The notes beneath the pieces were generated by a model. That model had not been told where the DNA came from. It did no database searches and saw only the letters and a program-made list of their open reading frames with translations. The position numbers and the translations under genes were made by a program. From Lachnospiraceae bacterium (lineage in GTDB: Bacteria; Bacillota; Clostridia; Lachnospirales; Lachnospiraceae): a DNA stretch of 64,000 nt. This document shows positions 13,221-54,516 of this stretch, one piece after another (position 1 is the stretch's first letter; every line of letters starts with the position of its first letter). Location of the stretch: the NCBI GenBank assembly GCA_045535935.1, contig JAZSMO010000012.1, forward strand, positions 35,813 to 99,812, in the 5' to 3' direction.

Positions 13221-14237
13221 ATGAAATTATTGACAATCACCGTACCGTGTTACAATTCGGCGGCGTATATGGAGCGCTGTGTGGATTCACTTCTTGTGGG
13301 CGGTGAAGAGGTAGAAATTATTATAGTCAACGACGGCTCGTCCGATCAGACAGCGCAGATTGCAGATGCGTATGCTCGTAAATATCCGACGATTGTCCGT
13401 GCGATCCACAAGGAAAACGGCGGCCATGGTTCGGCGGTCAATACCGGAATAGAAAATGCTACCGGATTGTATTTTAAAGTGGTGGACAGCGATGACTGGG
13501 TCAGTGAGAAGTCATACAAAGAGATTTTGGAGACCCTGCATGAGCTGGTCGTTTCCGGTAATCAGGTCGACATGTTACTTGCAAATTATGTATATGAAAA
13601 GGAAGGGGAAAAGCGTAAGAAAGTAGTTTCTTTCCGCCGCGCACTTCCGAAGAATGAAATATTCACATGGGATGAAGTGCGTCATTTCAAAAAGACGGAG
13701 TATATTCTCATGCATTCTATTATTTACAGAACGAGACTCCTTCATGAATGCGAACTTGAGCTTCCGGAGCACACGTTCTATGTGGACAATATATTTGCTT
13801 TCAATCCGCTTCCGTATGTCAGAAAGATGTATTATATTGATACAAATTTTTATCGTTATTACATCGGAAGAGAAGATCAGTCGGTCAATGAGAAAGTGAT
13901 GATCGGCCGCATTGACCAGCAGATCAAGGTCAACAAGCTGATGGTAGAATATTTCACGGAGACCAGAATTCCAAACAGGAAGACATATCGCTATATGATC
14001 AAATATCTGGATATTATCACCACGGTTTCTTCCATTATGCTGATCCGTGCGCGCACGGCGGAGGCACTGGAAAAGAAAGAAGAACTTTGGAAATATATCC
14101 GCATCACCAATCCGAGATTGTTCCGCCGTCTTCGCTACGGACTTCTCGGTAACGTAATCAATCTTCCGGGCAAGGGCGGAAGAAGATGCAGTGAGGCAAT
14201 TTATCGTTTGGCACAGAAGGTAATGAAATTTAACTGA
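13221..14237 (+). CDS. glycosyltransferase family 2
   Basis: ITVPCYNSAAYMERCVDSLL, IIIVNDGSSD and VDSDDW (DxD) motifs. Confidence 0.85.
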   Translation: MKLLTITVPCYNSAAYMERCVDSLLVGGEEVEIIIVNDGSSDQTAQIADAYARKYPTIVRAIHKENGGHGSAVNTGIENATGLYFKVVDSDDWVSEKSYKEILETLHELVVSGNQVDMLLANYVYEKEGEKRKKVVSFRRALPKNEIFTWDEVRHFKKTEYILMHSIIYRTRLLHECELELPEHTFYVDNIFAFNPLPYVRKMYYIDTNFYRYYIGREDQSVNEKVMIGRIDQQIKVNKLMVEYFTETRIPNRKTYRYMIKYLDIITTVSSIMLIRARTAEALEKKEELWKYIRITNPRLFRRLRYGLLGNVINLPGKGGRRCSEAIYRLAQKVMKFN

Positions 14238-15322
14238 TGAGTACGATTATTTTTACGATGACACATAAGGCGTTTACGCCGCCGAGTGATCCGATGTTTG
14301 TTCCGCTTCAAGTTGGGAAGGCACTGCGGGAGAACCTCGGCTATATCGGAGATGATACAGGGGATTCCATTTCTGCATGGAATCCTTATTTCAGTGAGCT
14401 TACAGGTATGTACTGGGTGTGGAAAAATTTTAAAACCGACGGAAATGTCGGATTGTGCCATTACCGGCGTTTTCTCATTCATGAGGACGGAAACGTTATC
14501 ACGGAGAAAGAGTACGATACCTTTCTCACAGACTACGATCTGATTACCACCAAGCAGGTTGTGCTCAACAATTCCTACTATGACGGCTATGCGGTCAATC
14601 ATCATATCAAGGATCTGATTGAGACCGGGAATGTGATAAAAGAAATGTATCCGGACTATCATGCGGATTTCGAGCGGATTGTTCACGGAAACCGCACCTA
14701 TTTCGGAAACATGATCGTCTGCAAAAAGACATTGTTTGACGCCTATTCCAAATGGCTGTTTGATATTCTTTTTGAGGTAAAAAAACGCATCGATATCGAG
14801 AATTACGATAATTACAGAAAGCGTGTGTTCGGTTTTATATCCGAGATACTTCTTTTGGTATACGCAGAGCATAACAGGCTGCGTGTCTGTGAATGCAAGG
14901 TCGGAATGCCGGAGGAAAAGGTGGAGACAAGAGAGGTCAAAGAACAACTGAAAGACTTTTTTAGCCGAAAAGATTACAAGGGAGCCGGTGATTGTCTGAG
15001 AATGGCGCTTGCCAAACGGCCCGATATTCTGATGGAGGCTTCGGATGTGGACGGACATCTCATGTTGTCGCTGGAAATCATCACAATCTGTGAACAGGAA
15101 GAAGCATCCGCAAATGAAAATATTTTGAGTAAAATTCAAGATTTTGAGGAACTGCTCCAATGGGTCTGCGAGTTGAACCACCTCGCAGAGCAAAAGACAA
15201 AAGAACGTTTAAAGCCGCATCAGTGGCAAAAAACATGTTGTGAAAAAAAGATTACGCCGCAGGCTTATGAAGTGGCCTGTGTGGTGGCAGAGCGAAAAAG
15301 AAAATTGTCCATGGCAGACTAA
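14237..15322 (+). CDS. DUF4422-domain protein (putative glycosyltransferase)
   Basis: Its start overlaps the GT2 stop (TGATG). FVPLQVGKA...NPYFSELTGMYWVWKN...CHYRRF is characteristic of DUF4422. Confidence 0.7.
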   Translation: MSTIIFTMTHKAFTPPSDPMFVPLQVGKALRENLGYIGDDTGDSISAWNPYFSELTGMYWVWKNFKTDGNVGLCHYRRFLIHEDGNVITEKEYDTFLTDYDLITTKQVVLNNSYYDGYAVNHHIKDLIETGNVIKEMYPDYHADFERIVHGNRTYFGNMIVCKKTLFDAYSKWLFDILFEVKKRIDIENYDNYRKRVFGFISEILLLVYAEHNRLRVCECKVGMPEEKVETREVKEQLKDFFSRKDYKGAGDCLRMALAKRPDILMEASDVDGHLMLSLEIITICEQEEASANENILSKIQDFEELLQWVCELNHLAEQKTKERLKPHQWQKTCCEKKITPQAYEVACVVAERKRKLSMAD

Positions 15323-15987
15323 TGAGATAGTTTGCTATGGACAACTTTTTTTGCCGGTACATCTGCGAGGATGTAAAGCGGTATATAGACAGCAACAAAT
15401 AATAGAACTGCTGCTATAACATCAATGACAGAATGCTGTTTTAAAAATAGCGTGGACAGCACAACGGAGATGCATGTCACGAAAGAGATCGGACAGATCC
15501 ATTTTTTCTTGCGGAGTGATTGGCTTTTGCGCACCGCCGCATGGACAGCGAGAGAATTAAAACAGTGAATACTCGGCAGTACGTTGGTGGAAGTGTCGGA
15601 TCTGTGAAGTATCTTTACCAAATCCACAAACATGTTGTCCCTTGCAAATTCTGTCGGACGAATGCGCAGACCGTTCGGATAGATAAACGATACGAACAAA
15701 AATACAGTCATTCCGACGCCGAGCATGGTACAGAGTCTATAGTAGTCTTTGCGTTCCAGAAACATGAATCCCACAACGGCAGCACCGATGTAGATAAACC
15801 ATAGCAGATAAGGGACAATGAAGTATTCACAAAATGGAATATATGCATCCAGATCTGATTCGATGATGTGAATACGTTCTATCGGTCTGCTCTCCAGATA
15901 GGCAAAAATCGGCATATAAAATATTCCGTATATGACGGGCAACAGCATATGTCCGTGTTTTTTCAAAAACGGTTTGATCCTGTTCAT
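15319..15987 (-). CDS. PAP2-family phosphatase (membrane)
   Basis: 222 aa polytopic protein with PAP2 motifs PSIHC and HSVIDV. Its 3' end overlaps the convergent gene by 4 nt. Confidence 0.8.
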   Translation of the reverse strand: MNRIKPFLKKHGHMLLPVIYGIFYMPIFAYLESRPIERIHIIESDLDAYIPFCEYFIVPYLLWFIYIGAAVVGFMFLERKDYYRLCTMLGVGMTVFLFVSFIYPNGLRIRPTEFARDNMFVDLVKILHRSDTSTNVLPSIHCFNSLAVHAAVRKSQSLRKKKWICPISFVTCISVVLSTLFLKQHSVIDVIAAVLLFVAVYIPLYILADVPAKKVVHSKLSH

Positions 15988-16031
15988 GAAAAATCCTTTC
16001 TGCGAGCCTGCGGCTGCTGCTTGTTGAGCAG

Positions 16032-16967
16032 TCAGGCTTTGCGATAGTTAAGTTTGGAATCTTCCGTATGTATGGTGAGCTCCGTATAGTGTCCGCAAAT
16101 CTCGCCGTCTGTGTGTACGCAGAGCGGTTTGCTTGTAACAATACGGATTCTGCGGGCTTTGTACATATGAATACCTTTATGCCCCTTGTGTTTTCCTTTC
16201 AGTGCAAGAGGAAAAACAGGAAGCGCCTGTAATGCCGTCAGATTGCTTGCGACGCACACATCCAGAAGACCGTCGGTGCCATCTGCATCCGGGCAGAGCA
16301 TAAATCCGCCGCCTTCGTAAGGAAGCTGCATAAACGAGGCAAAAATGAGGCGGTTGAAATGAATCGGTGGCTTATCGTCGAGATACAAATCACAGGACAC
16401 CGTCTCAAGAGAAATCAGTTGTTTTAAGGCGACGGCACAATAAATCAGTTTGCCCAGCCCCAGTTTGTTAAAAACATTTTTAAAAGGGGAACGCAACACT
16501 TCGTCACAGGTGGCGGCGTCAAAACCGATGCCGCAGCTGACGTTGAAGCGCCTTGATTTTTTGCCGTAACACGCTGCGCCGACATCCGTCTGCCTGGTGA
16601 CACCGCATTTTTTGAGTCCGGCCACCGTATCCACCGGGTCGGCGGATATACCGAGTGCTCTTGCGAAGTCATTGCTTGTTCCTGTCGGAAGATAAGAAAC
16701 GATCGTATGCTCTATATCATCGATGGCATTGACAACGCAGTTGAGTGTACCGTCACCGCCGAGAACAATCAGGCGGTTTAAGGACCCGTTGTGTGCAAAA
16801 AGCTGACGGTCGGTCACTGATTTTGTGTAGTTTCTTAAATCTTTTTCGGATTTGGTAAAGTGTACAATATATGTAACTTTGGCTTGGTCAAGCGCTGCTC
16901 TTAAGTGCTTCCACTGTTTTCTTGCAAGTCCCGACCTGGAACTTGGATTTACAATTACATGATACAT
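16032..16967 (-). CDS. diacylglycerol/lipid kinase family protein (YegS/BmrU-like)
   Basis: N-terminus VIVNPSSRSG plus the GGDGTLN motif. 311 aa. Confidence 0.85.
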   Translation of the reverse strand: MYHVIVNPSSRSGLARKQWKHLRAALDQAKVTYIVHFTKSEKDLRNYTKSVTDRQLFAHNGSLNRLIVLGGDGTLNCVVNAIDDIEHTIVSYLPTGTSNDFARALGISADPVDTVAGLKKCGVTRQTDVGAACYGKKSRRFNVSCGIGFDAATCDEVLRSPFKNVFNKLGLGKLIYCAVALKQLISLETVSCDLYLDDKPPIHFNRLIFASFMQLPYEGGGFMLCPDADGTDGLLDVCVASNLTALQALPVFPLALKGKHKGHKGIHMYKARRIRIVTSKPLCVHTDGEICGHYTELTIHTEDSKLNYRKA

Positions 16968-18493: not shown

Positions 18494-21268
18494 TTATTCC
18501 TTCACGCCTCCAAGCACAATTCTCGAAACAATGCTTTTGGAAAAGAAAAGATATACAATCAGTGTCGGAAGGGTAAACAGGATCATTGACACATACATTT
18601 CCGGGCTTCCGGACGAGCCGCGCGGAGGCGCTCCTTCCATAAGCGTTGCGATGGTCCGCACTTCCGGCATAATAAGAATCAGGCTGTGCATAAAACCGTT
18701 GTTCCATGAGGCGGTAAAAGTAAAAATAAATTGCAGACACAGAGCCGGTTTTATAGATGGCAGTATCATCCGGTGGAAAATCGAAAGCTCCGAACATCCG
18801 TCGATTCGGGCTGCTTCCACAATGCTTTGCAAAGGAATCATCTTTAGATACATGCGCATAAAGTAAGCGGTCGCAGGCGTAGCAACGGCCGGCAGAATCA
18901 GTGGAACAAGTGTGTTTAAAAGCCCAAGATTCAGCGACAGCTTAAAGAAACCGACGGAGGTAGAAATCTGTGAAAACATCATTGCTGCGATGACAATTTT
19001 CCAAAGCGTTTTTCTGCCGCGGAAACGGAACATCTCAAAGCCGTATGCACACATACTTCCGAAATAAACGGCAAGCGTACCGGAAGAGAGTGAAACAATG
19101 AGAGAATATATCATGGCCTTGGAAATCGGACACAGCGAATAGCTTTCCGCCATCATAACATTGCTGTAGTTTTCCAAAAACTTTCCTTCCGGAATCAGGG
19201 TGAATCCGCGATGTATCAGGCTGTAGGCAGTGCGTGTGGAATTGACCAGCATAATGCCGATCGGATAAAGCGCTGCCAGGCAGAGCAGAGTACAGATGAA
19301 ACTCCGTAGCAGAATGGTTCTTACTGTCTTCGGATGTCGTCGCACGTATCGGATGCAGGCTTTAACGTCTGCTTTTTTCTTTTGGAAATATGCTTTGACA
19401 GCCGGCCGGATATCCGTTTTTTTCGGAAGCGGCCGCTTATTTATTTTACAAAGTACAAAGGTAATAATTTCGTGCAGCAGGCTCGCAGCCAGGATGGAAC
19501 AGACAAGCACGCATACGACAAAGAGACCGACGCCGGAAATCATTCCGAGATGCATGATAAACAGGTTGTGGATCAGATAAAGTTCCAGTGAAATTTTTCC
19601 GAGAAAATCCAGAACCCGGTTTTCAAAACGGCATTTTAAGGAAATCAGGAGCATCAGACAGACAAAGAAAAATGTCATGGTCAGCTGCGGACCCAGCGTC
19701 AGGAATTTGTCTGCATATCCCGGATTGGCTGCGGTTTCTGTCCAGTAGCCGTGGTTTGCCAGCATATAGCCGTTCAGTCGCGTAAAGGCACCAAAGCCGA
19801 TGAGACATCCGACGCATAGTAAAACATAGTATTTTTTACAAAAATCCAAAAACTTTGTTTCTTTCAAGGCAACGACAATTCCGAAGAAGAAAATCAGTGT
19901 GGAATTGTACCACCATTCGCCCTGAAACCAGTAATCGCCGTGACATAAAAGCAGGCTGAAGACAGTCAGCACACAAAGGAAGATAAACATACAGCCCACG
20001 GCGATTTTCCGGTTTTTGATAAAACGCATACAAAGATAAAAAGCGAGGTATAAAAAGGCAATCTCGACAATATACCACATATGAGTGTTGCGCAAAATCC
20101 ATCCGGTCAAATATCCGGCCCACTCTTTGAGATTGTAGTGTTTTCCCAAGCAGATATCCACAAGGAGGAAAACAAAGGTACATAAATAAAACGGAATCAG
20201 GATGGTAGGGAAACGCTTCTTGAAAAAGCCTTTCAGGTATCCCTCCTTTTCCAGCGTGCTTTTCATCAGTCCGTAGCCGGAGTAGAAGAAGAAAGCACCG
20301 ACAAGACAAACACCGAAGTTTTCCAGCACCTTAAAGATACTCGCATTTTCGGCGCCGACGGTCTGCACCAGGTGATGCATGACGATCAGAACGGCGAAAA
20401 AACCAAGCAGCGCTTTGGACTGTTTCAAACTGAGCGGGTCCTTTTGCCATGCACCGTAAATTTCGCTTTCATCGATTTGCCCGTGCTCCAGCATACGCAG
20501 CTCTTTGGCGCTCGGAATATAGTCTTCATCCTTGATTTTCATTCCGCAAAGAAGGATATAGCCCAGCGGAAGAATGAGAACCCATATGGAAAAACTGAAT
20601 TTTTTTGCCAAATCCAGAAATGTCTTTTTCGGCTCCTTCACACCGGCGGTTGCGTTTCCGGATGAAATGCTCTTAAGAACCGGCAGCATTTGGACATCCA
20701 GTGCCTTCAGCTGCGCTTCTGTGTCAAAGGCTTCCACATCATAGTGGTAGCAGTTCAGAAACAGATATTTGTCGCCGATGACAGTTGTGTATTTCGTATA
20801 AAGTGCATAATCACGGTGGACCTCCTCGGAATAAGAAGTGATTTCCTTTTCGAAGGTGATGTCCCTCAGGGTGACTTCTTCCCGACCGATTAGATTGTAA
20901 TTGGCAGGGTCTGTGTTATCCGGATTTGAAAAGGAGGCAGGAGCATCGCCGGTATCCGAAACGTACAGTTCAAGAAAGTTTTGCCAGTTGTCATCGATAA
21001 GCAGAAAAGAGACTCCCATTTTCTCCATCTCGCTCCGGAGCCCCTTTTTGTTATCCTTAAAAAATCGTGTCCATTTCCGGTCGGTTTCAAAGGAAATATC
21101 GGCATCTTTGACATATGTAATCGTTTTTCGGCCGGCATAAACGGTCTTTCCGTGTTTGGAGGCTTCCTCCTTGCTACCCGCCACATTTCCGGTGAGTGCA
21201 ACGGAGAGCACCGATATGACAAGGAGCAAAAGGACAGTATGTGTATTCCATTTAAACGGTATTTTCAT
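18494..21268 (-). CDS. tripartite fusion: signal-anchored extracellular domain + acyltransferase-3 domain + MalG-type ABC transporter permease
   Basis: A single uninterrupted 924 aa ORF. Residues about 1-220: TM helix plus a soluble domain. About 285-610: acyltransferase_3-like polytopic region (ALLGFFAVLIVMHHL..., FLGKISLELYLIHN). About 640-924: full carbohydrate ABC permease with the EAA loop (EAARIDGCSELSIFHRMILPSIKPAL). Confidence 0.8.
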   Translation of the reverse strand: MKIPFKWNTHTVLLLLVISVLSVALTGNVAGSKEEASKHGKTVYAGRKTITYVKDADISFETDRKWTRFFKDNKKGLRSEMEKMGVSFLLIDDNWQNFLELYVSDTGDAPASFSNPDNTDPANYNLIGREEVTLRDITFEKEITSYSEEVHRDYALYTKYTTVIGDKYLFLNCYHYDVEAFDTEAQLKALDVQMLPVLKSISSGNATAGVKEPKKTFLDLAKKFSFSIWVLILPLGYILLCGMKIKDEDYIPSAKELRMLEHGQIDESEIYGAWQKDPLSLKQSKALLGFFAVLIVMHHLVQTVGAENASIFKVLENFGVCLVGAFFFYSGYGLMKSTLEKEGYLKGFFKKRFPTILIPFYLCTFVFLLVDICLGKHYNLKEWAGYLTGWILRNTHMWYIVEIAFLYLAFYLCMRFIKNRKIAVGCMFIFLCVLTVFSLLLCHGDYWFQGEWWYNSTLIFFFGIVVALKETKFLDFCKKYYVLLCVGCLIGFGAFTRLNGYMLANHGYWTETAANPGYADKFLTLGPQLTMTFFFVCLMLLISLKCRFENRVLDFLGKISLELYLIHNLFIMHLGMISGVGLFVVCVLVCSILAASLLHEIITFVLCKINKRPLPKKTDIRPAVKAYFQKKKADVKACIRYVRRHPKTVRTILLRSFICTLLCLAALYPIGIMLVNSTRTAYSLIHRGFTLIPEGKFLENYSNVMMAESYSLCPISKAMIYSLIVSLSSGTLAVYFGSMCAYGFEMFRFRGRKTLWKIVIAAMMFSQISTSVGFFKLSLNLGLLNTLVPLILPAVATPATAYFMRMYLKMIPLQSIVEAARIDGCSELSIFHRMILPSIKPALCLQFIFTFTASWNNGFMHSLILIMPEVRTIATLMEGAPPRGSSGSPEMYVSMILFTLPTLIVYLFFSKSIVSRIVLGGVKE

Positions 21269-21277
21269 GTAGAGTAC

Positions 21278-21619
21278 CTATTCTTTCTTTTCTAAAACAT
21301 ATAGTTTTATTTTATTAATTATGGTTGCAAAAATCAGTGTGGCGGTCAAGACAAGAAGAACAAAAATCCGTAAGTCCCGCAGAATCCACTCTGCAAAATA
21401 TAAGATAAATACATTTTCCAAGAGAATCAGTTCCAAAGAAATTTTGCCTAAAAACTTCAGTGCTTTGTTGTGAATGCGCACTTTCATAAGTAGAAGCAAA
21501 AGTAAGCTGAGACCGCGTTCCCATTTTGAAACCGCCTTGTCTGTGACACCGAGTTTTTCTTTATCCATATGCGTTACCTCAATCCGCTGCATTCGGAGCG
21601 AAAAAAGGAAGCCAGCCAC
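21278..21619 (-). pseudogene. chimeric remnant: XRE-type HTH fragment joined to an acyltransferase-3 C-terminal fragment
   Basis: The 113 aa ORF contains LGVTDKAVSKWERG (second half of an XRE HTH). This is directly followed by FLGKISLELILLENVF, a paralogue of FLGKISLELYLIHNLF in the adjacent 924 aa gene. Confidence 0.5.
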
Positions 21620-21649
21620 ACCGGCAGTGCTTCCTTCTGTGTAAATAAA

Positions 21650-23650
21650 TTATTCTTTATAAGTTTTTTCAAACTCATCGATCGGCATCGGCTTCGCATA
21701 ATAATATCCCTGAATCAGGTCACATTCCTGCTCAATCAAAAAGTCTACCTGATCACGGCTTTCGATACCTTCCGCAACGATTTTCATATCCAGCTTCTTG
21801 GCAAGATCAATCACCTCGGAGACAATGAGCATTCCGCGGTCCAGAGAATTCATGCCGCGGAAGAAATCCGCATCGATCTTCAATACGTCGATCTGGAGTT
21901 CCTTGAGAGAATTCAGTGAAGAGTAGCCTGCGCCGAAATCGTCCATGGAAACAGGGAATCCGTGCTCACGGAGCTGCTTTACTGTGTTTAAAAGCACCTG
22001 CTTGTCGTCGAAGAATGCGCTTTCTGTCAGCTCCAGTTCGATCACATCGTGAGGGACATTGTATTTGTCTACGATTTTGCAAATATGATCCGCCAGATCC
22101 TCACGCGTAAAATGTGCACGGGATATATTGACGGAAATCGGAACAACCTTACGTCCCGCGGAAATCCATTGTGATTGTTTTCGCGCAATTTCTTCCAGCA
22201 TATAGTCATCCAATTTTAAGATAAATCCATTTTTCTCAAAAATAGGAATGAAGCGGTTTGGCGGGATAAAGCCTTCCGTTGGGTGGATCCATCGAACCAG
22301 TGCTTCCGCACCGCCGAGCTGTTCTCCTTTTGTGCTGATTTTCGGTTGCAGATACACTTGGAACTCATTGTTTGCGAGGGCGAGGTCCATTTCATCCTCC
22401 ACTTTGTGTTCCCAAAGATGTTGTTTATTCATTTCTTCGTCGAAAAAGGCAATGTGTGTTTCTGCGTCTTCGCCCATGAGTTCCCGCGCAATATAGGCGT
22501 TATTATAAAGAAGTTCCACATCTGTTTCTCCTTTTTCGGCCAGACAGACGCCGAAAGTAAAATGTAATTTCATATTCGGGAGAACCTGGCTGACAGACGC
22601 CTCTATTTTTTCGATGCGATCCAGGAGCGATTTTTCATTTTCGTACAAAAGCAGAAGCGCAAAATCCGCATTTTCCCGGTAAGCCATCTGCTCTTTGTTT
22701 CGAACAATTTTGCGGAGCGTATGATAAAAACGTTCCAAAAGTTCTTCGCCGTCCCTCACGCCGAAGCAGGTGCAGAAGCTTTGATATTTCCGCATGCGGA
22801 GATGTACAACAGCATATTTCCGGCGGCCGTTGCGATTCCTTTTCAGAAGCTTTGTGCTGTGCGTTGTAAAATGCAACCAGTTGTTTCCGCCGGTGACCAT
22901 GTCCGTGTAAATCACTTTCGTAATCCTGTGCTGGTCCGCCAGAACAAAAATAAAGGACACCAGGTAGTAGATACAGAAAATGACAAGCATTACGATTCCG
23001 GTTGCGAGCATGATGAGGATAAAAACAAAGTCCATCGCATATACATCGATATTGTTCAGTACACAGACATTGTAACTGCCTGCAGGTATCACAAACCAAA
23101 GTTTGGCGTGCAATATGCTTATATGTTCAAAGGACGACGAATTTTCGGAGAGAGCTTCAAGCGGTGAAAGATTTATATGGTCATAAAGATCCGGACTGAT
23201 GACCATTCCTCCGTCTTCAAAAGCAAAAACATTTTGTGCATCTTCTTCTATGACAATTTTGAGCGTATGTGACGTTCCGTTTTGCTGGAAATAAAAGTCG
23301 GAAGCCTCTTTCATGTCAGGATAGCGCTCGGAGGAGCTCCAGAGCGGCCTGTTATCTTCTGACAGAATGCTGACAGCAGCAATATCAGGCGAAAAGGTGA
23401 GATACGATAAAATTTTATTGCCGGTTGCATCGAGATCGTTCTCTGCAATGTTCTCGTAGGCAGAGGCAATACGCTCGGAATTCAAATTGCACAGATCTAT
23501 TTTCGTATAAAGTGTACTGACGACAGTCAAAGACGTGATGACTGCCAACATAATGATGAACATAAGTAAAAGAAAAATCAGACCGATGATCGACGGTACA
23601 ATCCGATTCTTTTTCATTTTTTTAATTCGTTTGTCTTTGGCTCTTTTCAT
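21650..23650 (-). CDS. membrane sensor protein with degenerate GGDEF domain and EAL phosphodiesterase domain
   Basis: 666 aa. Two TM helices flank a periplasmic-type region. The GGDEF position reads RENADF. The EAL domain looks intact (EALVRW, DDFGAGYSSL, EGIES, QGYYY). Confidence 0.85.
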   Translation of the reverse strand: MKRAKDKRIKKMKKNRIVPSIIGLIFLLLMFIIMLAVITSLTVVSTLYTKIDLCNLNSERIASAYENIAENDLDATGNKILSYLTFSPDIAAVSILSEDNRPLWSSSERYPDMKEASDFYFQQNGTSHTLKIVIEEDAQNVFAFEDGGMVISPDLYDHINLSPLEALSENSSSFEHISILHAKLWFVIPAGSYNVCVLNNIDVYAMDFVFILIMLATGIVMLVIFCIYYLVSFIFVLADQHRITKVIYTDMVTGGNNWLHFTTHSTKLLKRNRNGRRKYAVVHLRMRKYQSFCTCFGVRDGEELLERFYHTLRKIVRNKEQMAYRENADFALLLLYENEKSLLDRIEKIEASVSQVLPNMKLHFTFGVCLAEKGETDVELLYNNAYIARELMGEDAETHIAFFDEEMNKQHLWEHKVEDEMDLALANNEFQVYLQPKISTKGEQLGGAEALVRWIHPTEGFIPPNRFIPIFEKNGFILKLDDYMLEEIARKQSQWISAGRKVVPISVNISRAHFTREDLADHICKIVDKYNVPHDVIELELTESAFFDDKQVLLNTVKQLREHGFPVSMDDFGAGYSSLNSLKELQIDVLKIDADFFRGMNSLDRGMLIVSEVIDLAKKLDMKIVAEGIESRDQVDFLIEQECDLIQGYYYAKPMPIDEFEKTYKE

Positions 23651-45933: not shown

Positions 45934-46051
45934 AACAAATTCCCTTCCCTACAAAAACAGATCTTTATAATTATAGAAAAGTATACCACACTAATCGGAA
46001 AAATGGTATACTTACAAAAAGAGTTTCTGCGTGGAAAGGGAGGTGAAACAG

Positions 46052-49000
46052 TTGTACCGTGTAGAGAGATATCTGTCGCTGGAAGATATGCAGCAGGATG
46101 GTGGTGTGCTCGAAGTGTCAGAGAGCAGGATCGAGTTGTCAGTGGGTGAGGATGAGGTCTGTGACGGTGAGATCAGAGTGCGCTCCGGATCGGGACGGGA
46201 GGTACATGTATTTTGTTATTCCGATCACTATCGGATGCAGTGCCGTGTCAATGAATTTATCGGAAGAGAAGGTACATTAAATTATCGTTTTGATGCGGCC
46301 GGTCTGGATGTCGGAAGCATCGTAAAGGGTGAATTTTGTCTGCTTTCCGAGGCGGGAGAATATCATATCCCGTTTTCGGTTACCGTCAGACAGCCTCTTG
46401 CCGGGACGTCGTTGGGAGAAATCCGCAATCTGTTTCACTTTGCAAACCTTGCCAAAGAAAATTGGAAAGAAGCGGTAAAGCTTTTTTATTCCGAGTATTT
46501 TCATATGCTTTTTTACGGGCACGATCATCGTTACTACGATCTCTACCGCGCGTTGTCGGGATGTGCGGGGAATGAGCACAATGTCGATGAGTTTCTTGTC
46601 GGGATACATAAAAAGCAGAAAAACACCTATCATGTGGCAGAGGAAGGATTGCTGTTAAACCATGTGTCGGGAGTGAGACAGGAGTCGCTCACACTGATTT
46701 GTGACGGATGGGGATATATGCATGTAAAAGTCCGCACGCAGGGAGAATTTTTGACTCCGCTGAAGACGAGCCTGTCGGAGGCGGATTTTGACCGGAATAC
46801 ATGCAAGGTGTTGTTTGAAGTGAATGAAGATATGCTTTTCGGTGAATGCGCGACAGGAAGTGTTGTGTTTGAATATGACGGAGGAAGTGTTGAGGTTCCG
46901 GTCATAGTCAACCGTCCGGCGGAGATGTCCCGAAAACAGTTGCAGAGGCAGGAAGAGAAGCTGTTACTTGTACAGCTGATGCACCAGTATATCGCTTGTG
47001 AAACATTGCCTTTGCAGCGCAGTGCCTATTTGAAGGATGCGGAGAAGACAATAGAGAAGATTAATGCCGGATATGGCAGGAATCTGTGGGGAAGATTGTA
47101 TCAGATGCATGTTCTGATAGAGCAGGATCGTGCAAATGAGGCCAAATGGGTTCTTTCCCATATAGAAAATACGCACAAGCAGGAAAATATGGAGCCGGCC
47201 CAATACGGATACTACCTTTACCTGCGAAGTGAACTTGCAGAGGATGAGAGATTTCGCAGAAGCGTCACGGAGCAATTAAAAAAGTTACTCGATGCTAACC
47301 CTAAAGAAACATTTCTCGCCTGTCTTTATATGAAGATGATGGAGGATGTGGTTTGGCAAAAACGACTCACCTTTTATGAGCATCAGTATGCACAGGGGAG
47401 TCGGAGTCCGCTGTTATATCTGGAAGCCTATAAAGTGTTTGCGGAAAGTCCGGCGTATCTTGTGAAGATAGATGAGTTCGAGATCAGCGTGTTGCGATTC
47501 GGAATACGTTATGGGTTATATACGGCGGAGATGGCAGAGAGGGTCGCTGATCTGATTCTCCGGAAGAAGGATATGTCTGCCATGCTTTTCCGTTTTTTGG
47601 GAGAAAGCTACGGAGTGTATCCGCAGGATTCCATGTTGCAGGCGCTTTGCGTTCTGATGATCCGCAGCGGTATGTGCGGACCGGAGTGCTTCGGCTGGTA
47701 TGAACTTGCAGTGCACAAGCAGATGAGAATCACGTCGCTGTATGAATATTATATGAGATCGGCTGATACGAGAGCGGATCGCCTTCCGCCGAGAGCAGTT
47801 CTCATGTATTTTGCATATCGGTGTGACCTGGATGAAAGAAGAATCGCATATCTGTATGCGCTTCTGGTACGGCACAGGGAAGAGATTCCGGAGCTGTTTC
47901 GCCAATATAGGGATAATATAGAACAATTTGCAATTTCAGAACTTGAAAAGGGACTGATCAGTGAGAATCTGGCGGTGATATACCGGTATTTTCTTGCAGA
48001 AGGGGAGACGGTGCTTCCGAAGGACAAAATACAAAAGGTGGCCTTTCGCCATTTGATCAAGGTGCACAGGGACGGAATTGCAAATGTGATTGTCGTACAG
48101 GACAAATTAAAACAGGAAACGGCCTACCCGATTGAGAAAGACCGTGCGTATGTGGATTGCTATACACCGGATTATGTCGTTGTTCTTGAGGATGCAGAAG
48201 GAAACCGTTACTGTGACGAAGCCGCTTGGACCGATATCCAATTGATGCCGGTGGAGAAGCCGGCGATGTATCTGCCCCAGCAACCGGTGACCAATATCGG
48301 AATTGCGCTTTATCAGACAAATATAGGTGGCAATCCGGAGCAGGCCGATCCGGCGCTTTGGCCGATATATGAGCAGCTGGCGGTTTCTTCGCGGGTGGAT
48401 GAAGGATATCGCTGTGAGGTCGCAACCCGATTGTTACGGTTGTATTTTGACAATGAGAAATACGATGAGATGCACAGGATTTTGAAATCGTATGATGTAT
48501 CTGCTGTCACGTCGTCTGAGCGTGCTGAGGTGGTACGCTACCTGGTTTATCTGGAGCAGGATGCACAGGCACTGGATATTTTGTACAATTATGGATTTGA
48601 AAATGTATCGGCGAAGGTACTCGCCCGGTTGATCGTAAGAATCCTGGAGACCGAACCGCTGTTTGACGGAAGGCTGTCGGCGCTCGTGTACTATACATTT
48701 AAGCTTGGGAAATATACACAGGATATGTTGCTGTATCTTTGCCGATATTTTGAAGGGTCACTGAAACAGATGCGTGATATATGGCGGGCGGCGGCCGGTT
48801 TTGATGTGGATGCATCCCGCATTGCGGAGCGGATTCTTCAGGCGTATTTGTTTTCTCGTGCCTATCTGGCGGGGATAGCGGATGTGTTTGAGTACTATAT
48901 GTCGCACAGGAAAAGAGACAGCGTGGTCAGATGTTATCTTCGTGCAATGGCATATCGCTATTTTGTGAAGCAGCAGGTTGTTTCGCCGGAAGTATTTACG

Positions 49001-49588
49001 GCAATGGAAAATCTTCTTTGTAACAGCAGTGAGACGGATGATGTGAGCAAGGTGGCATATTTACATTATATGGCTACCGAAACAGACAGTTACAGTGACA
49101 GGCAAAAAATGTTGATCACGGAACTTGTCAATGAGCTTATTTCGGAAAAACAGTATGTCCCGTTCCTTTCCTCTTTTACAGCGTTTATTCCATGGCTTCG
49201 CCCGTATGCAGAACTGTCGTATCTGGAATACCGGACGGCTCCGGGAAGTGTGGTGACCTTGCATTATCTGCAGGAAGGCCGGGAAGAACAATACTGCCAG
49301 AAGAAATTGGATGAAATTTGTGCCGGTTATTTCTGTCACAACTTTGTTTTGTTTTTCGGCCAGCGTCTGCAATATTATTTTACGGAGAGTAATGACGGGG
49401 AACGAAAACTGACAGAGAGCGGCTTTTTGGAAAAGAGCGATATGACCGGAGAGGAAAGTGAGAGCAGATACGGTCTTCTCAATGATATTGTGATGTGTGA
49501 TGCGTTGGGAGATGAGAGGACGAAGCAGGAGCTTATTTCGAGATACAAAAAGGAGTCCCTTCGGACGGAGTTACTATTTGGAGAATAA
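46052..49588 (+). CDS. large uncharacterised protein: two N-terminal beta-sandwich-like modules, about 800 aa helical-repeat region, beta-rich C-terminus
   Basis: ORF 46031..49588. The likely start is TTG 46052, 6 nt after GGGAGGTG. I recognise no catalytic motif and see no TM helix. It is the first gene of a coupled four-gene operon. Confidence 0.7.
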   Translation: MYRVERYLSLEDMQQDGGVLEVSESRIELSVGEDEVCDGEIRVRSGSGREVHVFCYSDHYRMQCRVNEFIGREGTLNYRFDAAGLDVGSIVKGEFCLLSEAGEYHIPFSVTVRQPLAGTSLGEIRNLFHFANLAKENWKEAVKLFYSEYFHMLFYGHDHRYYDLYRALSGCAGNEHNVDEFLVGIHKKQKNTYHVAEEGLLLNHVSGVRQESLTLICDGWGYMHVKVRTQGEFLTPLKTSLSEADFDRNTCKVLFEVNEDMLFGECATGSVVFEYDGGSVEVPVIVNRPAEMSRKQLQRQEEKLLLVQLMHQYIACETLPLQRSAYLKDAEKTIEKINAGYGRNLWGRLYQMHVLIEQDRANEAKWVLSHIENTHKQENMEPAQYGYYLYLRSELAEDERFRRSVTEQLKKLLDANPKETFLACLYMKMMEDVVWQKRLTFYEHQYAQGSRSPLLYLEAYKVFAESPAYLVKIDEFEISVLRFGIRYGLYTAEMAERVADLILRKKDMSAMLFRFLGESYGVYPQDSMLQALCVLMIRSGMCGPECFGWYELAVHKQMRITSLYEYYMRSADTRADRLPPRAVLMYFAYRCDLDERRIAYLYALLVRHREEIPELFRQYRDNIEQFAISELEKGLISENLAVIYRYFLAEGETVLPKDKIQKVAFRHLIKVHRDGIANVIVVQDKLKQETAYPIEKDRAYVDCYTPDYVVVLEDAEGNRYCDEAAWTDIQLMPVEKPAMYLPQQPVTNIGIALYQTNIGGNPEQADPALWPIYEQLAVSSRVDEGYRCEVATRLLRLYFDNEKYDEMHRILKSYDVSAVTSSERAEVVRYLVYLEQDAQALDILYNYGFENVSAKVLARLIVRILETEPLFDGRLSALVYYTFKLGKYTQDMLLYLCRYFEGSLKQMRDIWRAAAGFDVDASRIAERILQAYLFSRAYLAGIADVFEYYMSHRKRDSVVRCYLRAMAYRYFVKQQVVSPEVFTAMENLLCNSSETDDVSKVAYLHYMATETDSYSDRQKMLITELVNELISEKQYVPFLSSFTAFIPWLRPYAELSYLEYRTAPGSVVTLHYLQEGREEQYCQKKLDEICAGYFCHNFVLFFGQRLQYYFTESNDGERKLTESGFLEKSDMTGEESESRYGLLNDIVMCDALGDERTKQELISRYKKESLRTELLFGE

Positions 49589-49591
49589 AAA

Positions 49592-50887
49592 GTGGATGTT
49601 GTAATCGGATATGATATAAATGAATATTACGCACAGATTTCCTATGCAGGACCGGGGCAGGAACCTGAGACGCTGGAATTTCCGGCGTTTAAGGAGGAGG
49701 GGAATATCGAGACGGCTCTTTGCAAACGCCATGGAGTAAATCAGTGGTTTTGCGGAAAGGAAGCAGTCAAAAAAGGGGTTTCCGGAGATGGGACGCTGGT
49801 GGAGCATTTGTGGACTCTGCTCGGCGAGCAGGAAACAATTCTTATTGAAAAAAAAGAGTACCGGACGGCCGAGCTTTGCAACCTTTTTCTGGGAAGGACG
49901 CTTACCTGGGCATTGGGACGTCTGGAAGAAATCTACAAAGAACCGGTCCATGTCAGGGCGTTGATGCTTTCTTCCGAGAATTACAAAGATATCATGCGCA
50001 AGCAGGCAGATGTTTTGACGGCCGCACTTCCGGTGCCGCCGGAACGCATCTTTTTTCAAGGACATGAAGACAGTCTGTATGCGTATATGGTACATCAGCC
50101 GGAGAGACTGAGAGGCTATGAAACGGGCGTGTTTGACCTGACCGGAGAGACAATGGTGTCCTATCGTGTCACAATGAACCACCGAACACAGCCGATTGTC
50201 ACTACCGTAGAGAAGCAACCGGTTTTGGAGCTTGTAAAAAAGAAACATTACCCGTCGATTATGGAACATGACCGCTGCCTTGCGCAGCTTGATTTGCAGC
50301 TGAAGGCCTATGTGGAAGCATTTACGCAGGGAAGGATTGTGACAAGTCTTTATCTGATCGGAGACGGATTTCAAGGGGATTGGTACAAAGAAAGCCTGAA
50401 AGTGCTGTGCCGCAATCGGAAAGTATATGCAGGAAACAATCTGTTCGGAAAAGGCGCCTGCTACAGTGCGATAGAAAAAATATGGCCGACGGAAGATTAC
50501 GCCAATTTCCTGTTTATGGGGCGTGATATGCTTCGTTATAATGTGGGGGTATCTTTGCAAAACCACGACGGAGAAGAGTATTATCCTCTGTTGGATGCCG
50601 GGACGAACTGGTACGACGCAAAGTCCGAGATTACATTTATGATGGAAGATCCGGAATCGGTGGAACTATTGATTACACCGATCAGCGGAACCGGTGCGTA
50701 CACGGAAACGCTTTGTCTTGAACCTTTGCCTAAACGGCCGTTTCGCAGCTATCGGATGACGCTCACGGCACAAATGCAATCAGAAGAAAATCTTTATATC
50801 TCTATTCAGGATGAGGGATTTGGTGAGCTGTATCCCAAAGTACCTCTCGGTATGACTTATGATCTTACACTCGGAGGAAATAAATGA
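49592..50887 (+). CDS. HSP70/actin-fold protein with degenerate nucleotide-binding motifs
   Basis: The GTG start lies 3 nt after the upstream stop, with a GGAGA SD. It is collinear with the DnaK NBD: VVIGYDINEYYAQIS (phosphate-1), ALMLSSENY...RIFFQGHEDSLYAY, GVFDLTGETMVSY (phosphate-2), LYLIGDGFQ (adenosine), NNLFGKGACYSA. Confidence 0.7.
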   Translation: MDVVIGYDINEYYAQISYAGPGQEPETLEFPAFKEEGNIETALCKRHGVNQWFCGKEAVKKGVSGDGTLVEHLWTLLGEQETILIEKKEYRTAELCNLFLGRTLTWALGRLEEIYKEPVHVRALMLSSENYKDIMRKQADVLTAALPVPPERIFFQGHEDSLYAYMVHQPERLRGYETGVFDLTGETMVSYRVTMNHRTQPIVTTVEKQPVLELVKKKHYPSIMEHDRCLAQLDLQLKAYVEAFTQGRIVTSLYLIGDGFQGDWYKESLKVLCRNRKVYAGNNLFGKGACYSAIEKIWPTEDYANFLFMGRDMLRYNVGVSLQNHDGEEYYPLLDAGTNWYDAKSEITFMMEDPESVELLITPISGTGAYTETLCLEPLPKRPFRSYRMTLTAQMQSEENLYISIQDEGFGELYPKVPLGMTYDLTLGGNK

Positions 50888-52951: not shown

Positions 52952-53773
52952 ATGAAAAAATTACTTGCTTTATTATTATGTGTGACAATGACGGCTTTCA
53001 TGCTGACAGGTTGCGGTGGGGCTTCGGAAGAATCCGGAACAGCTTCCGCAGAAGGTGAAAGAACAACATTTACCGTTGGTTTCGATGCAGAATTTCCACC
53101 ATACGGATATATGGATGACAATGGAGAATATGTAGGATTTGACCTTTCTCTTGCACAGGAAGTGTGTAACAGAAACGGTTGGGAGCTTGTAAAACAGCCG
53201 ATCAACTGGGATACCAAAGACATGGAGCTTTCTTCCGGCGCAATCGATTGTATCTGGAACGGATTTACGATCAACGGACGTGAAGATGATTATACATGGT
53301 CTGTACCATATGTAGACAACAGTCAGGTATTTGTTGTGGCAGCAGATTCCGGTATTGCTGCGCAGGCAGACCTCGCCGGAAAAACGGTTGCGGTACAGGC
53401 AGATTCATCTGCACTTGCAGCACTGAACGATGAGGAAAACACAGCTTTGACAGAGAGCTTTGCTTCACTGAACCAGTTTGCAGATTACAATACAGCTTTT
53501 ATGGATCTTGAAGCCGGCGCTGTGGATGCGGTTGCTATGGATATCGGTGTTGCGAATTTTCAGATGGAATCCAGAGAAGCAGGAAAATTCATTATTTTAG
53601 ATGAATATCTTTCGACAGAACAGTACGGCGTAGGCTTCCTTCTCGGGAATGAAGCGCTGAGAGATCAGGTGCAGAAGACATTGCTTGAGATGGTGGAAGA
53701 CGGTACTTTTGCTAAGATCGCAGAAGAATGGGGACTTAGCGATGTAGTTTGTCTTAAGGCTGCTGCAGAATAA
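52952..53773 (+). CDS. amino-acid ABC transporter substrate-binding lipoprotein
   Basis: It has a lipobox LTGCGG and type-3 SBP motifs (FTVGFDAEFPPYGY, DCIWNGFT). Confidence 0.88.
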   Translation: MKKLLALLLCVTMTAFMLTGCGGASEESGTASAEGERTTFTVGFDAEFPPYGYMDDNGEYVGFDLSLAQEVCNRNGWELVKQPINWDTKDMELSSGAIDCIWNGFTINGREDDYTWSVPYVDNSQVFVVAADSGIAAQADLAGKTVAVQADSSALAALNDEENTALTESFASLNQFADYNTAFMDLEAGAVDAVAMDIGVANFQMESREAGKFIILDEYLSTEQYGVGFLLGNEALRDQVQKTLLEMVEDGTFAKIAEEWGLSDVVCLKAAAE

Positions 53774-53853
53774 GAAACTTGCGAAGGTGCCTTTTCAGGC
53801 ACCTTCTTATACTTTGCACGCTATAACCTGCGGCGGCAAAAAAGGAGGAACTT

Positions 53854-54504
53854 ATGGATATTATTACAATGCTGAAACAGTTGGCAGAAGGAATGATTGT
53901 GACGGGACAGATATTTTTCCTGACGCTTTTATTTTCGCTGCCGCTCGGTCTGATCATAGCATTCGGGAGAATGGCAAAAAACGGATTGATCAGAACCATT
54001 TCCAAAATCTACATATCCATCATGCGCGGAACGCCGCTGATGTTACAGCTGATCGTTGTTTACTTTGCACCGTACTATGTGTTTGGTGTGCGGTTCGGTT
54101 CGGGATACCGTATGGTGGCCGTGATTCTCGGTTTTGTGCTCAACTATGCAGCATACTTTGCCGAGATATACCGTGCGGGTATTCAGGCGATTCCGGTGGG
54201 ACAGCATGAGGCGGCCCAGGTGCTTGGCTTCTCGAAATCGCAGACTTTTTTCCGTATTATCCTTCCGCAGGTGATCAAGCGAATCTTACCGCCGGTGACC
54301 AATGAAGTGATTACGCTCGTCAAAGATACTTCACTGGCCTTTGTACTTACCGTGGCGGAAATGTTCACGCTGGCGAAACAGATTGCAGCTGCTCAGACGA
54401 CAGTGATTCCGCTGATGGTGGCCGGTCTTTTCTATTACATATTCAACCTTCTTGTGGCTTTTGTGATGGAAGCAATCGAGAAAAAATTGGGATATTACAG
54501 GTAG
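53854..54504 (+). CDS. amino-acid ABC transporter permease (HisM/GlnP type)
   Basis: 216 aa with the conserved YISIMRGTPLMLQL and EAA-like loop FAEIYRAGIQAIPVGQHEAAQVLG. Confidence 0.9.
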   Translation: MDIITMLKQLAEGMIVTGQIFFLTLLFSLPLGLIIAFGRMAKNGLIRTISKIYISIMRGTPLMLQLIVVYFAPYYVFGVRFGSGYRMVAVILGFVLNYAAYFAEIYRAGIQAIPVGQHEAAQVLGFSKSQTFFRIILPQVIKRILPPVTNEVITLVKDTSLAFVLTVAEMFTLAKQIAAAQTTVIPLMVAGLFYYIFNLLVAFVMEAIEKKLGYYR

Positions 54505-54516
54505 GAGGTGCGGAGT

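Follow-up and report, generated by a model that had tools for sequence, protein, structure and literature searches.

Results

Organization of the fusion gene and its protein

The window (the whole stretch of 64,000 nt of DNA that was analysed) carries on its minus strand a gene for a membrane protein in which an N-terminal extracytoplasmic domain, an acyltransferase-3 (AT3) domain and an ABC permease domain of the MalG type are joined in one chain, and close upstream of it lies a short remnant ORF (Table 1). The initial annotation described the frame as uninterrupted, and it does start with ATG and run for 924 aa with zero internal stops.

Table 1. Positions of the fusion gene, its parts and its flanking features in the window (AF2, AlphaFold2 model; TM, transmembrane helix)
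Feature	Position (nt)	Strand	Basis
Complete fusion ORF, 924 aa + stop, three-module membrane protein	18494..21268	-	
TM1, N-terminal signal-anchor helix, about aa 9-27	21188..21244	-	Hydropathy peak 2.41; AF2 helix aa 9-26
Extracytoplasmic domain, aa 28-225, predicted PsbP/Mog1/DcrB/LpqN-like alpha-beta fold	20594..21187	-	AF2 and Foldseek
TM2, about aa 226-243, chain back to cytoplasm	20540..20593	-	Hydropathy and AF2
Variable cytoplasmic loop, aa 244-280	20429..20539	-	Alignment
AT3 (Acyl_transf_3) membrane domain, aa 281-610	19439..20428	-	Pfam, invariant columns, PHROG
K/R-rich cytoplasmic linker, aa 611-653	19310..19438	-	Hydropathy and AF2
CUT1 MalG-type ABC importer transmembrane domain, aa 654-924, six helices	18497..19309	-	Pfam, NCBIfam, homology, fold
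EAA loop / coupling helix, aa 818-837	18758..18817	-	24-sequence alignment
MalG-type C-terminal tail ...IVLGGVKE	18497..18520	-	Alignment
Terminator-like hairpin, 14-bp stem, directly past stop codon	18450..18481	-	
Remnant ORF, 96 codons	21278..21568	-	blastn, alignment, HMM matches

In the predicted topology the chain passes from inside to outside through TM1, places the ectodomain outside and returns through TM2, after which the 10-helix AT3 domain and the six-helix MalG-type domain each begin and end in the cytoplasm, with the K/R-rich linker and the EAA loop inside. This arrangement is self-consistent and gives about 18 TM helices in one protein; the AF2 model of the full protein had a pTM of 0.66. 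The extracellular N-terminal domain that had been proposed was recovered as a region between two hydrophobic helices that folds confidently when modelled alone (pLDDT 92.5). There was no Pfam match and no sequence-family match to it, and Foldseek matched the model to PsbP, DcrB, EagT6/SciW and LpqN with E values of 1e-6 to 2e-3 (PsbP, E 1e-6 to 4e-5 and TM-score 0.45-0.62; DcrB, DUF1795, E 2.5e-4; LpqN, E 2e-3), the likeness to PsbP, DcrB and LpqN being at the level of fold only, with 9-14% identity. By structural similarity of the predicted model the ectodomain therefore appears to belong to the PsbP/Mog1/DcrB/LpqN-like fold. The cytoplasmic loop after TM2 is far shorter in more distant homologues.

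The second module had been likened to an acyltransferase_3 domain, and Pfam Acyl_transf_3 (PF01757) matched aa 289-598 with an E value of 9e-24 (84.6 bits against a cut-off of 31), the match covering positions 9-324 of the 326 in the profile; a PHROG O-acetyltransferase family also matched (E 2e-20). The AF2 secondary-structure string places about ten long helices within aa 281-609 and the hydropathy peaks concur. Published hallmarks of AT3 domains are a His in TMH1 and the motif FFxISG in TMH2 (OafA H25, F41 and G46; PMC7448272), and both the TMH1 His and FFxxSG are present here and invariant in 24 homologues. The residues invariant in that set include H298/H299, F327-F328-x-S330-G331, R352 and H567, the last within an LYLIH567N motif, and there are two motifs specific to the family, GEWWYN and GYWTE. 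The R/K-X10-H spacing is not kept: the nearest basic residue is K285, 13 residues before H298 (K-X12-H), and position -11 is Leu. Of the RXXR motif, described as ‘highly but not absolutely conserved’ (PMC7448272), KKR352 is present with R352 invariant, and the second Arg is absent 3-4 residues downstream. By profile and helix core the domain can be placed in the Acyltransferase-3/TmAT family. No SGNH domain was detected in the fusion protein with Pfam or NCBIfam, and the AT3 domain runs into the cytoplasmic linker and permease, not into an 11th TM helix. The linker was correctly described as K/R-rich (17 K/R against 3 D/E over aa 599-656); a long helix is predicted at aa 621-644, and the position of the linker is conserved across the 24 homologues.

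For the C-terminal module, previously called a complete MalG-type permease with an intact EAA loop, Pfam BPD_transp_1 (PF00528) matched aa 735-917 above its cut-off (E 1.8e-7, 31.5 bits against 26.4). The NCBIfam models for GlcU, UgpE and MalG aligned over aa 654-924, and the idea of a specific orthologue of any of the three was rejected, the scores being far under the equivalog cut-offs (GlcU 88.6 against 340, UgpE 73.5 against 297 and MalG 49.1 against 261 bits). Stand-alone CUT1 ‘membrane protein 2’ permeases, ordinary Lachnospiraceae MalG-type ones among them, share about 40% identity with the permease part (E about 1e-55, 95-100% coverage). The predicted fold matched SugB, MalG and AlgM2 in Foldseek with target TM-scores of 0.75-0.83 (8hps_B, SugB, E 6.6e-9 and 0.83; 3puv_G, MalG, 0.75), SugB aligned with the domain at E 1.8e-17, and identity to solved structures was 22-26%. 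The EAA loop, E818-A-A-R-I-D-G824 ... L836-P837 (aa 818-837, EAARIDGCSELSIFHRMILP), fits the consensus EAA---G---------I-LP (PMC6906923), and its residues E818, R821, D823, G824, E827 and P837 are invariant in the 24 sequences. The same holds for I917, G920 and E924 of the C-terminal tail, which aligns with the tails of SugB and AlgM2, and a P3-like loop is retained as well. Judged from these sequence features, the C-terminal module is a complete CUT1 MalG-type permease domain.

Conservation of the architecture

The initial annotation had allowed that the fusion might be a recent deletion-generated chimera and had proposed looking for its architecture in other genomes. The same architecture was found in 42 protein clusters (90% identity clustering) with 35-97% identity, and in independent assemblies of 27 GTDB species that belong exclusively to the Lachnospiraceae; the carriers include cultured isolates, some of them from the rumen (isolates with the gene are, for example, Lachnospiraceae bacterium AB2028 and NC2008 and Eubacterium sp. 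MSJ-21); there are 11 full-length representatives of the fusion among 1.84 billion at 50% identity. In comparisons with two relatives dN/dS lay at 0.08-0.12 for the ectodomain, the AT3 domain and the permease and at 0.16 for the linker; with values of about 0.1 throughout, every module is under purifying selection. These results bear on whether the gene could be an artefact, either of a recent deletion that joined two genes or of misassembly at about 19350-19450. Beyond the unusual architecture nothing further speaks for this except that the locus did undergo a deletion, though upstream of the fusion gene. The junction and linker, in contrast, are shared by the 27 species down to 35% identity, the GC content is continuous across the AT3/permease junction without a break, and the linker has the low dN/dS just given. 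On the strength of cross-genome conservation, smooth composition and purifying selection, we regard an artefact as ruled out for practical purposes, its probability being negligible. The fusion gene is a real, conserved gene of herbivore-gut Lachnospiraceae. We found no description of an AT3 and ABC permease domain pair in the literature; the ectodomain-AT3-MalG architecture is apparently undescribed, and the function proposed for it below is a prediction.

The nearest paralogues (P0043, P0044, P0045, P0054 and P0055) carry a canonical AT3 at the C-terminal position occupied here by the permease. Alignment of the fusion-type AT3 with this second AT3 by hhalign was marginal (probability 49%) and served solely to match up the FFxxSG and LYLIH motifs of the two types.

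The upstream cassette and other neighbours

About a third of the species have a membrane-anchored XRE regulator (XRE-TM) and a small paralogous AT3 directly upstream, the fusion gene being third in the order regulator, small AT3, fusion gene. In the window a deletion of about 1.36 kb has destroyed both upstream genes. Compared with L011 and L017, the locus has lost about 1.36 kb as well as about 55 bp, and in the remnant ORF the start of the XRE-TM gene continues in frame into the final 75 or so codons of the small AT3, so that this one ORF is matched by both the HTH-TM and the AT3small HMM profiles. The three-gene cassette, the remnant at 21278-21568 and the second AT3 domain of the paralogues had all been overlooked in the initial annotation. 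The promoter region has been replaced in the window and no sigma-70-like site was found there upstream of the fusion gene, which makes expression in this strain uncertain.

The HTH/AT3small pair is not beside the fusion gene in 17 of the 27 species, and in two lineages close relatives are distinguished only by having or lacking it; the fusion protein is therefore not dependent on the pair, and regulator and small AT3 would together form an accessory regulatory module. A larger role for the regulator would follow if the fusion protein were mainly the sensor of a complex that reports extracellular glycan to the XRE protein (or to a BlaR1/BlaI-type system in the paralogues), modification or transport not being its primary role. 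The membrane-anchored XRE regulator is indeed directly upstream in 8-9 species, paralogue P0043 comes after a BlaI/BlaR1-like pair, and P0029 precedes a Peripla_BP_4 gene and GGDEF genes. Nevertheless we consider this sensory role very unlikely, given that a linked regulator is absent in those same 17 species and has been lost repeatedly while the fusion gene was retained, and that the catalytic-type AT3 residues are invariant.

Other neighbours were less informative. In the distant clade a 252-aa protein, NAGPA and DUF5717 are conserved beside the gene but yielded no functional lead, and adjacency to glyA was dismissed as a functional link, being synteny only. An origin in phage or defence systems was likewise rejected, there being no PADLOC match at the locus and only generic PHROG matches (O-acetyltransferase and HTH families).

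Absence of linked ABC partner genes

Outside this family, the CUT1 permeases that are known work as MalF/MalG-type heterodimers supplied by a binding protein, and we know of no precedent for a homodimer of MalG-type domains only. The earlier remark that no partner genes lie nearby holds for the window, in which motif scans and Pfam recovered neither a further CUT1 permease nor a sugar-binding protein or MsmX-type ATPase; apart from the fusion, the window has just one type I ABC importer, a system for polar amino acids (52952-55278). The remark extends to relatives. When 27 loci were surveyed (by custom HMMs, by clustering the neighbouring ORFs all against all and by scans for Walker A and LSGGQ), 26 of them had no second EAA-type permease, solute-binding protein or MsmX-like ATPase within +/-10 kb. 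The one exception has a complete but unrelated CUT1 operon that lies on the other strand, and no ABC partner was a conserved neighbour across the 27. ABC_tran and ABC2_membrane genes that recur near some loci were rejected as candidates because they are ABC-2 exporter sets, not EAA-type partners.

The fusion protein could still take the place of MalG in a CUT1 importer encoded elsewhere, borrowing that importer's MalF-type permease, binding protein and ATPase and adding acylation to it. We think this unlikely: canonical CUT1 permease pairs are, as far as is known, almost always adjacent and co-evolving, whereas a linked MalF-type gene was found in none of the 27 species and the family has long diverged as a unit without a linked partner. 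What recommends it is the identity of about 40% to ordinary Lachnospiraceae MalG-type permeases, the retention of the P3-like loop, EAA loop and tail that canonical complexes need, and the location of the transmembrane sugar site of the model system MalFGK2 in MalF, not in MalG (PMC6906923).

The lack of a linked ATPase gene would also be expected if the MalG-type domain had given up any ATPase-related role and been exapted as a dimerisation or membrane scaffold for the acyltransferase, standing in for the second AT3 of the paralogues, whose canonical AT3 at the same position suggests that different membrane modules are tolerated there. The EAA loop and C-terminal tail, however, rank with the best conserved parts of the whole chain, both are cytoplasmic and to our knowledge known only as ATPase contacts, and dN/dS is as low in the permease as in the AT3 module; a mere scaffold is thus an improbable explanation.

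Discussion

Proposed function

We tentatively favour the view, at somewhat less than even confidence, that the fusion protein is a functional inner-membrane glycan acyltransferase whose MalG-type half, likely homodimeric, docks an ATPase encoded in trans. By analogy with OatA, OafA and Oac, the AT3 domain would take an acyl group from acyl-CoA in the cytoplasm and transfer it to an acceptor, a carbohydrate or glycolipid, at the outer face of the membrane, and the PsbP/LpqN-like ectodomain would present that acceptor, as the SGNH domain may do in OatA and OafA. Because the EAA loop and C-terminal tail are invariant, we infer that the MalG-type domain has kept its function in ABC coupling. Its ATPase would probably be of the MsmX/MsmK ‘multitask’ type, and in Firmicute CUT1 systems one ATPase, encoded elsewhere, is commonly shared (PMC7658222). 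Pairing of the whole protein with itself as a homodimer seems most likely because no MalF-type gene lies alongside in the 27 genomes. In such a complex ATP-driven movement or gating of a sugar substrate could be physically tied to acylation, a hypothetical coupling of the kind that the initial annotation had suggested. Points that weigh against the favoured view are the lack of a known precedent for a homodimer of MalG-type domains, the position of the MalFGK2 sugar site in MalF, and the departures of the AT3 domain from R/K-X10-H and RXXR.

Beyond this favoured view, it is doubtful that the protein is a self-contained homodimeric ABC machine that dispenses with a binding protein, the shared ATPase moving a sugar or glycolipid while the AT3 domain acylates it. 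If true, this would amount to an ATP-coupled ‘acylation-linked translocation’, with a logic analogous to that of group translocation, and to the first CUT1-type permease functioning without a MalF-type partner.

Peptidoglycan, O-antigens, capsules and secreted glycans are substrates for O-acylation by AT3 enzymes, and the modification affects resistance to lysozyme, to phage and to antibody. The way in which AT3-only enzymes locate and handle the acceptor is treated as an open question in reviews of the family, and a natural fusion of AT3 with an ABC permease would offer a direct handle on whether transmembrane acyl transfer can be coupled to ATP-driven substrate movement. It also challenges the assumptions that CUT1 systems obligatorily have MalF/MalG-type pairs and a binding protein. 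Because the family is small and conserved and occurs in rumen isolates that are in culture, it is experimentally tractable, and even if the permease were a mere scaffold the family would illustrate the reuse of ABC modules.

Comparison with known systems

The closest comparison is with tandem proteins from rumen and gut Clostridia that have the order ectodomain-AT3-AT3 (e.g. P0043, P0045, P0050 and P0055); these are uncharacterised and carry only the names ‘acyltransferase’ or ‘OafA/YrhL’. They have the GEWWYN-type AT3 in common with the fusion (42-51% identity). In P0043, P0045 and P0050 the similarity extends into the preceding N-terminal part (query coverage 62-66%), and an XRE-TM regulator and a small AT3 gene accompany some of the tandem proteins too. 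At the C-terminus, where the fusion has the MalG-type permease, they carry a second AT3 of the canonical kind with R-X10-H.

Like OatA (peptidoglycan) and OafA/OafB (O-antigen), the fusion has a 10-helix AT3 with the TM1 His and FFxxSG, and as in those enzymes an extracytoplasmic domain with a presumed role in handling the acceptor is joined to it. It differs in lacking SGNH, the 11th helix, the R/K-X10-H spacing and the second Arg of RXXR, and in having a PsbP-like ectodomain at the N-terminus and an ABC permease at the C-terminus. VanT provides an AT3 precedent for a cytoplasmic C-terminus that continues into a second functional module, although in VanT that module is a soluble enzyme and here it is a membrane transporter domain.

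With MalG, SugB and AlgM2 the fusion shares the six-helix fold, the EAA loop and the C-terminal G-x-V-K tail, but its domain is part of a longer chain, not a separate subunit, and genes for a MalF-type partner, a binding protein or an ATPase are not linked to it. OpuA and GlnPQ are homodimeric and carry an extracytoplasmic domain and an EAA-type permease on one polypeptide, with the ATPase either separate or fused; their fused extracytoplasmic domain has a classical binding-protein fold, whereas that of the fusion is PsbP/DcrB-like and an AT3 domain lies between it and the permease.

Conservation of the fusion gene

The fusion ORF starts with ATG and its frame is uninterrupted, and the description of it in the initial annotation (frame, domain calls, linker and EAA loop) was correct in each checkable detail; the C-terminal part does match the BPD_transp_1 profile above its cut-off (see table). 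Both Pfam domains occur together in 42 clusters at 90% identity in the protein database, mostly of 890–943 aa and ranging from 97% to 35% identity, and scanning all 1.84 billion 50%-identity representatives gave 11 full-length fusion clusters and one fragment. Of the GTDB representative species, 27 match all three modules, every one Lachnospiraceae. The gut of ruminants, deer, horses or rabbits is the source of most carriers (the cultured strains AB2028, NC2008 and Eubacterium sp. MSJ-21 are among the 27), and the public annotation of their fusion proteins is ‘acyltransferase family protein’. Linker and junction are undisrupted in the homologue alignment, no break in base composition was seen across the junction, and comparison with two relatives gives a dN/dS of 0.16 for the linker and of 0.08–0.12 for each of the three modules (ectodomain, AT3 and permease). 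The fusion ORF is a real gene: an artefact is barely credible given the same architecture in 42 clusters and 27 species, the uniformly low dN/dS and a junction that aligns cleanly. The suggestion of a recent deletion-generated chimera unique to this assembly is likewise rejected, as architecture, linker and junction are kept across the 27 species. In Wujia sp. PUUB23 (locus L039, 11051–13878) the gene lies in two overlapping ORFs broken between ectodomain and AT3, owing to a frameshift or to an error in sequencing; this split gene corresponds to the 638-aa database protein P0021.

Features of the fusion protein and its surroundings (nucleotide positions refer to the window)
Feature	Position	Strand	Description
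Fusion gene	18494–21268	-	924 codons
Signal-anchor helix	aa 9–27		hydropathy, AlphaFold2
Alpha/beta domain	between the two N-terminal helices		200 residues; hydropathy, AlphaFold2
Second helix	aa 226–243		hydropathy, AlphaFold2
Variable loop	between second helix and AT3		hydropathy, AlphaFold2
AT3	aa 281–609		about ten helices; hydropathy, AlphaFold2
Acyl_transf_3	aa 289–598		Pfam E 9e-24, over curated cut-off
Linker, long K/R-rich helix	between AT3 and permease		17 K/R vs 3 D/E in aa 599–656; hydropathy, AlphaFold2
Permease	C-terminal, after linker		six helices; hydropathy, AlphaFold2
BPD_transp_1	aa 735–917		Pfam E 1.8e-7, over curated cut-off
Cassette gene 1 (relatives)			XRE-type HTH protein, one TM helix, short outside tail; 150–197 aa
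Cassette gene 2 (relatives)			small AT3, stand-alone paralogue of the fusion's AT3; 351–376 aa
Cassette gene 3 (relatives)			fusion gene
Deletion scar	21278–21660	-	
Remnant ORF	21278–21568	-	96 codons, in-frame; regulator start joined to last two helices of small AT3
GGDEF/EAL terminator hairpin	21611–21625		
Envelope-related cluster	13221–16967		GT2, DUF4422, PAP2 and DAG-kinase genes
Polar amino-acid importer	52952–55278		complete system
Large ORF	46031–49588		1185 aa; next gene directly after matches DUF5716_C (46031–50887 overall)

Topology and predicted structure

Topology was derived from hydropathy and from an AlphaFold2 prediction that used 24 homologues (pLDDT 81, pTM 0.66). The predicted arrangement is self-consistent, with the ectodomain outside, the ends of AT3 and the linker inside and the permease running in-to-in, which would place its EAA loop on the cytoplasmic side. 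Modelled by itself (pLDDT 92.5), the ectodomain has a PsbP/Mog1 fold (Foldseek E 1e-6 to 2e-3), as do DcrB, EagT6 and SciW (both DUF1795 chaperones) and LpqN, an envelope lipoprotein of mycobacteria. In Foldseek the permease model gave target TM-scores of 0.75–0.83 against SugB, MalG and AlgM2. Residues 654–924 align with the NCBIfam models GlcU, UgpE and MalG at scores far under the equivalog thresholds, so the domain is CUT1-type and an orthologue of no named permease. Residues 640–924, searched alone, matched thousands of ordinary ‘carbohydrate ABC transporter permease / membrane protein 2’ proteins, with about 40% identity over full length (E ~1e-55) to stand-alone permeases.

AT3 and ATPase-coupling motifs

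Invariant AT3 residues in the homologue alignment (TM1 His H298/H299, F327-F328-x-S330-G331, R352 and H567 in LYLIH567N) are counterparts of the published AT3 hallmarks. As the R/K-X10-H spacing is not kept (K-X12-H instead), the second Arg of RXXR is absent and GEWWYN and GYWTE are invariant, the domain belongs to a divergent AT3 subfamily. In the permease, residues 818–837 (EAARIDGCSELSIFHRMILP) fit the classical EAA---G---------I-LP loop, the docking site for the ABC ATPase (PMC6906923). The E, R, D, G, E and P of this loop are invariant among homologues, and the C-terminal tail (...LGGVKE) is conserved too; SugB and AlgM2 have tails that align with it. In MalFGK2 structures the MalG tail goes into the MalK dimer interface, and we know of no role for the EAA loop and MalG-type tail besides ATPase coupling. 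The permease domain probably still works with an ABC ATPase, chiefly because both features are invariant, which also makes it quite unlikely that the domain is a scaffold that has lost ATPase use.

Genomic context

The fusion gene is flanked by a convergent glyA on one side and a GGDEF/EAL gene on the other, with the envelope-related cluster beyond glyA. Another DUF4422 gene occurs near the fusion gene in the differently arranged L012/L013 locus, and a DUF5717 protein of 1188 aa (L027, 6305–9868) is encoded beside it in a distant clade (L027, L031, L036). No CUT1 partner for the fusion permease was found anywhere in the 64 kb window, where the sole other type I importer is the polar amino-acid system, and when the 10 kb on each side of the gene was searched in 27 species with purpose-built HMMs, clustering of the neighbours and scans for ATPase motifs, no MalF-type permease, binding protein or MsmX-type ATPase proved to be conserved there; the lack of nearby ABC partner genes noted initially is thus borne out in both. 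Firmicute CUT1 systems share ‘multitask’ ATPases (PMC7658222), so the missing linked ATPase is normal; to have neither MalF-type partner nor binding protein linked is abnormal for CUT1. That the protein is an alternative MalG subunit serving a CUT1 importer encoded elsewhere we consider unlikely.

Homologues of at least 42% identity form a clade in which the fusion gene comes last in a compact row of three genes, all in one direction. The small AT3 (3363–4490 in L011, 8867–9994 in L001 and equivalents) keeps GEWWYN, GYWTE, FFxxSG and the TM1 His, and its H567-equivalent is Glu or Gln, except in L003, L005 and L015, which have Ile, Asn or Leu; it may be catalytically altered, or regulatory in role. 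The window has neither XRE-TM regulator nor small AT3 gene, about 1.36 kb plus about 55 bp being missing relative to L011 (whose fusion protein is 97% identical) and L017, and a deletion scar marks their place. The upstream region of about 160 bp in these two loci is replaced by 83 bp with the GGDEF/EAL terminator hairpin, and no sigma-70-like promoter was detected in the replaced region. In a second lineage a 1.9-kb regulator/small AT3 pair in L012 is absent from L019. As the pair is entirely missing at the fusion gene in 17 of the 27 species and variable between relatives, it is accessory and the fusion protein independent of it. A role for the fusion protein as sensor for linked regulators is improbable.

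Paralogues and origin

The nearest paralogues are a much larger, uncharacterised set from rumen and gut Clostridia (700–1400 aa) with an ectodomain-AT3-AT3 tandem, sharing the GEWWYN-type AT3 (42–51% identity) and in some cases the N-terminal region; at the C-terminus, 335 residues make up another AT3, this one canonical and with R-X10-H. As this second AT3 holds the C-terminal position, the fusion family looks like a sub-branch whose C-terminal module was swapped for a MalG-type permease from a local CUT1 system. Downstream of one tandem gene, that of P0055 (L015/L016), come an XRE-TM gene and one for a small AT3, and another, that of P0043 (L014), is preceded by a BlaI/BlaR1-like pair; some members lie beside SLH-domain and polysaccharide-lyase-like surface proteins. 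Relative to L017 the fusion segment (18495–21584) has diverged less than the rest of the locus (94.5% nucleotide identity, dS 0.18, vs 82–83% in both flanks, with dS 0.38 for glyA and 0.85 for DAG-kinase), and L019 vs L012 gives the same pattern (93% vs 79%), which suggests recent recombination or transfer between related lineages. Other MalG-type permeases carry N-terminal extensions of 140–400 residues (P0361, 717 aa; P0332, 678 aa; P0347, P0372 and P0342) and are possibly further unusual permease fusions; in two of them 400 residues have no Pfam match, and one has a LacI-type HTH and partial Peripla_BP_1, maybe a gene-call fusion.

Proposed function and comparison with known systems

From the architecture, topology, conservation, selection and retained AT3 and ATPase-coupling motifs shown here we infer the remainder of a mechanism. 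With acyl-CoA as donor, the AT3 domain would acylate a carbohydrate or glycolipid outside the cytoplasm, and this acceptor would be held by the PsbP/LpqN-like ectodomain. A shared MsmX/MsmK-type ATPase would bind to the permease, which most likely forms a homodimer since two EAA loops are required and a MalF-type partner is never linked; movement or gating of substrate would then be tied to acylation. Taken as one layered statement this is tentative, with slightly under an even chance of being right throughout; the coupling of transport to acylation is a plausible hypothesis. As membrane-anchored regulators are linked, and in some lineages envelope glycosyltransferase and lipid genes too, we lean weakly towards inducible cell-envelope modification over nutrition.

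Reviews of AT3 proteins describe AT3-only, AT3-SGNH, AT3-racemase (VanT) and NRF-AT3 architectures and none of them mentions an ABC permease fused to AT3; full-text literature searches for the domain pair by names or accessions returned unrelated genome surveys only. The component families (AT3 and CUT1 MalG-type) are known already, and each part departs from its canonical system in one defining feature: unlike canonical AT3-SGNH proteins the fusion AT3 has neither an SGNH domain nor an 11th helix, and unlike a canonical CUT1 MalG-type system the permease has no linked MalF-type partner or binding protein.
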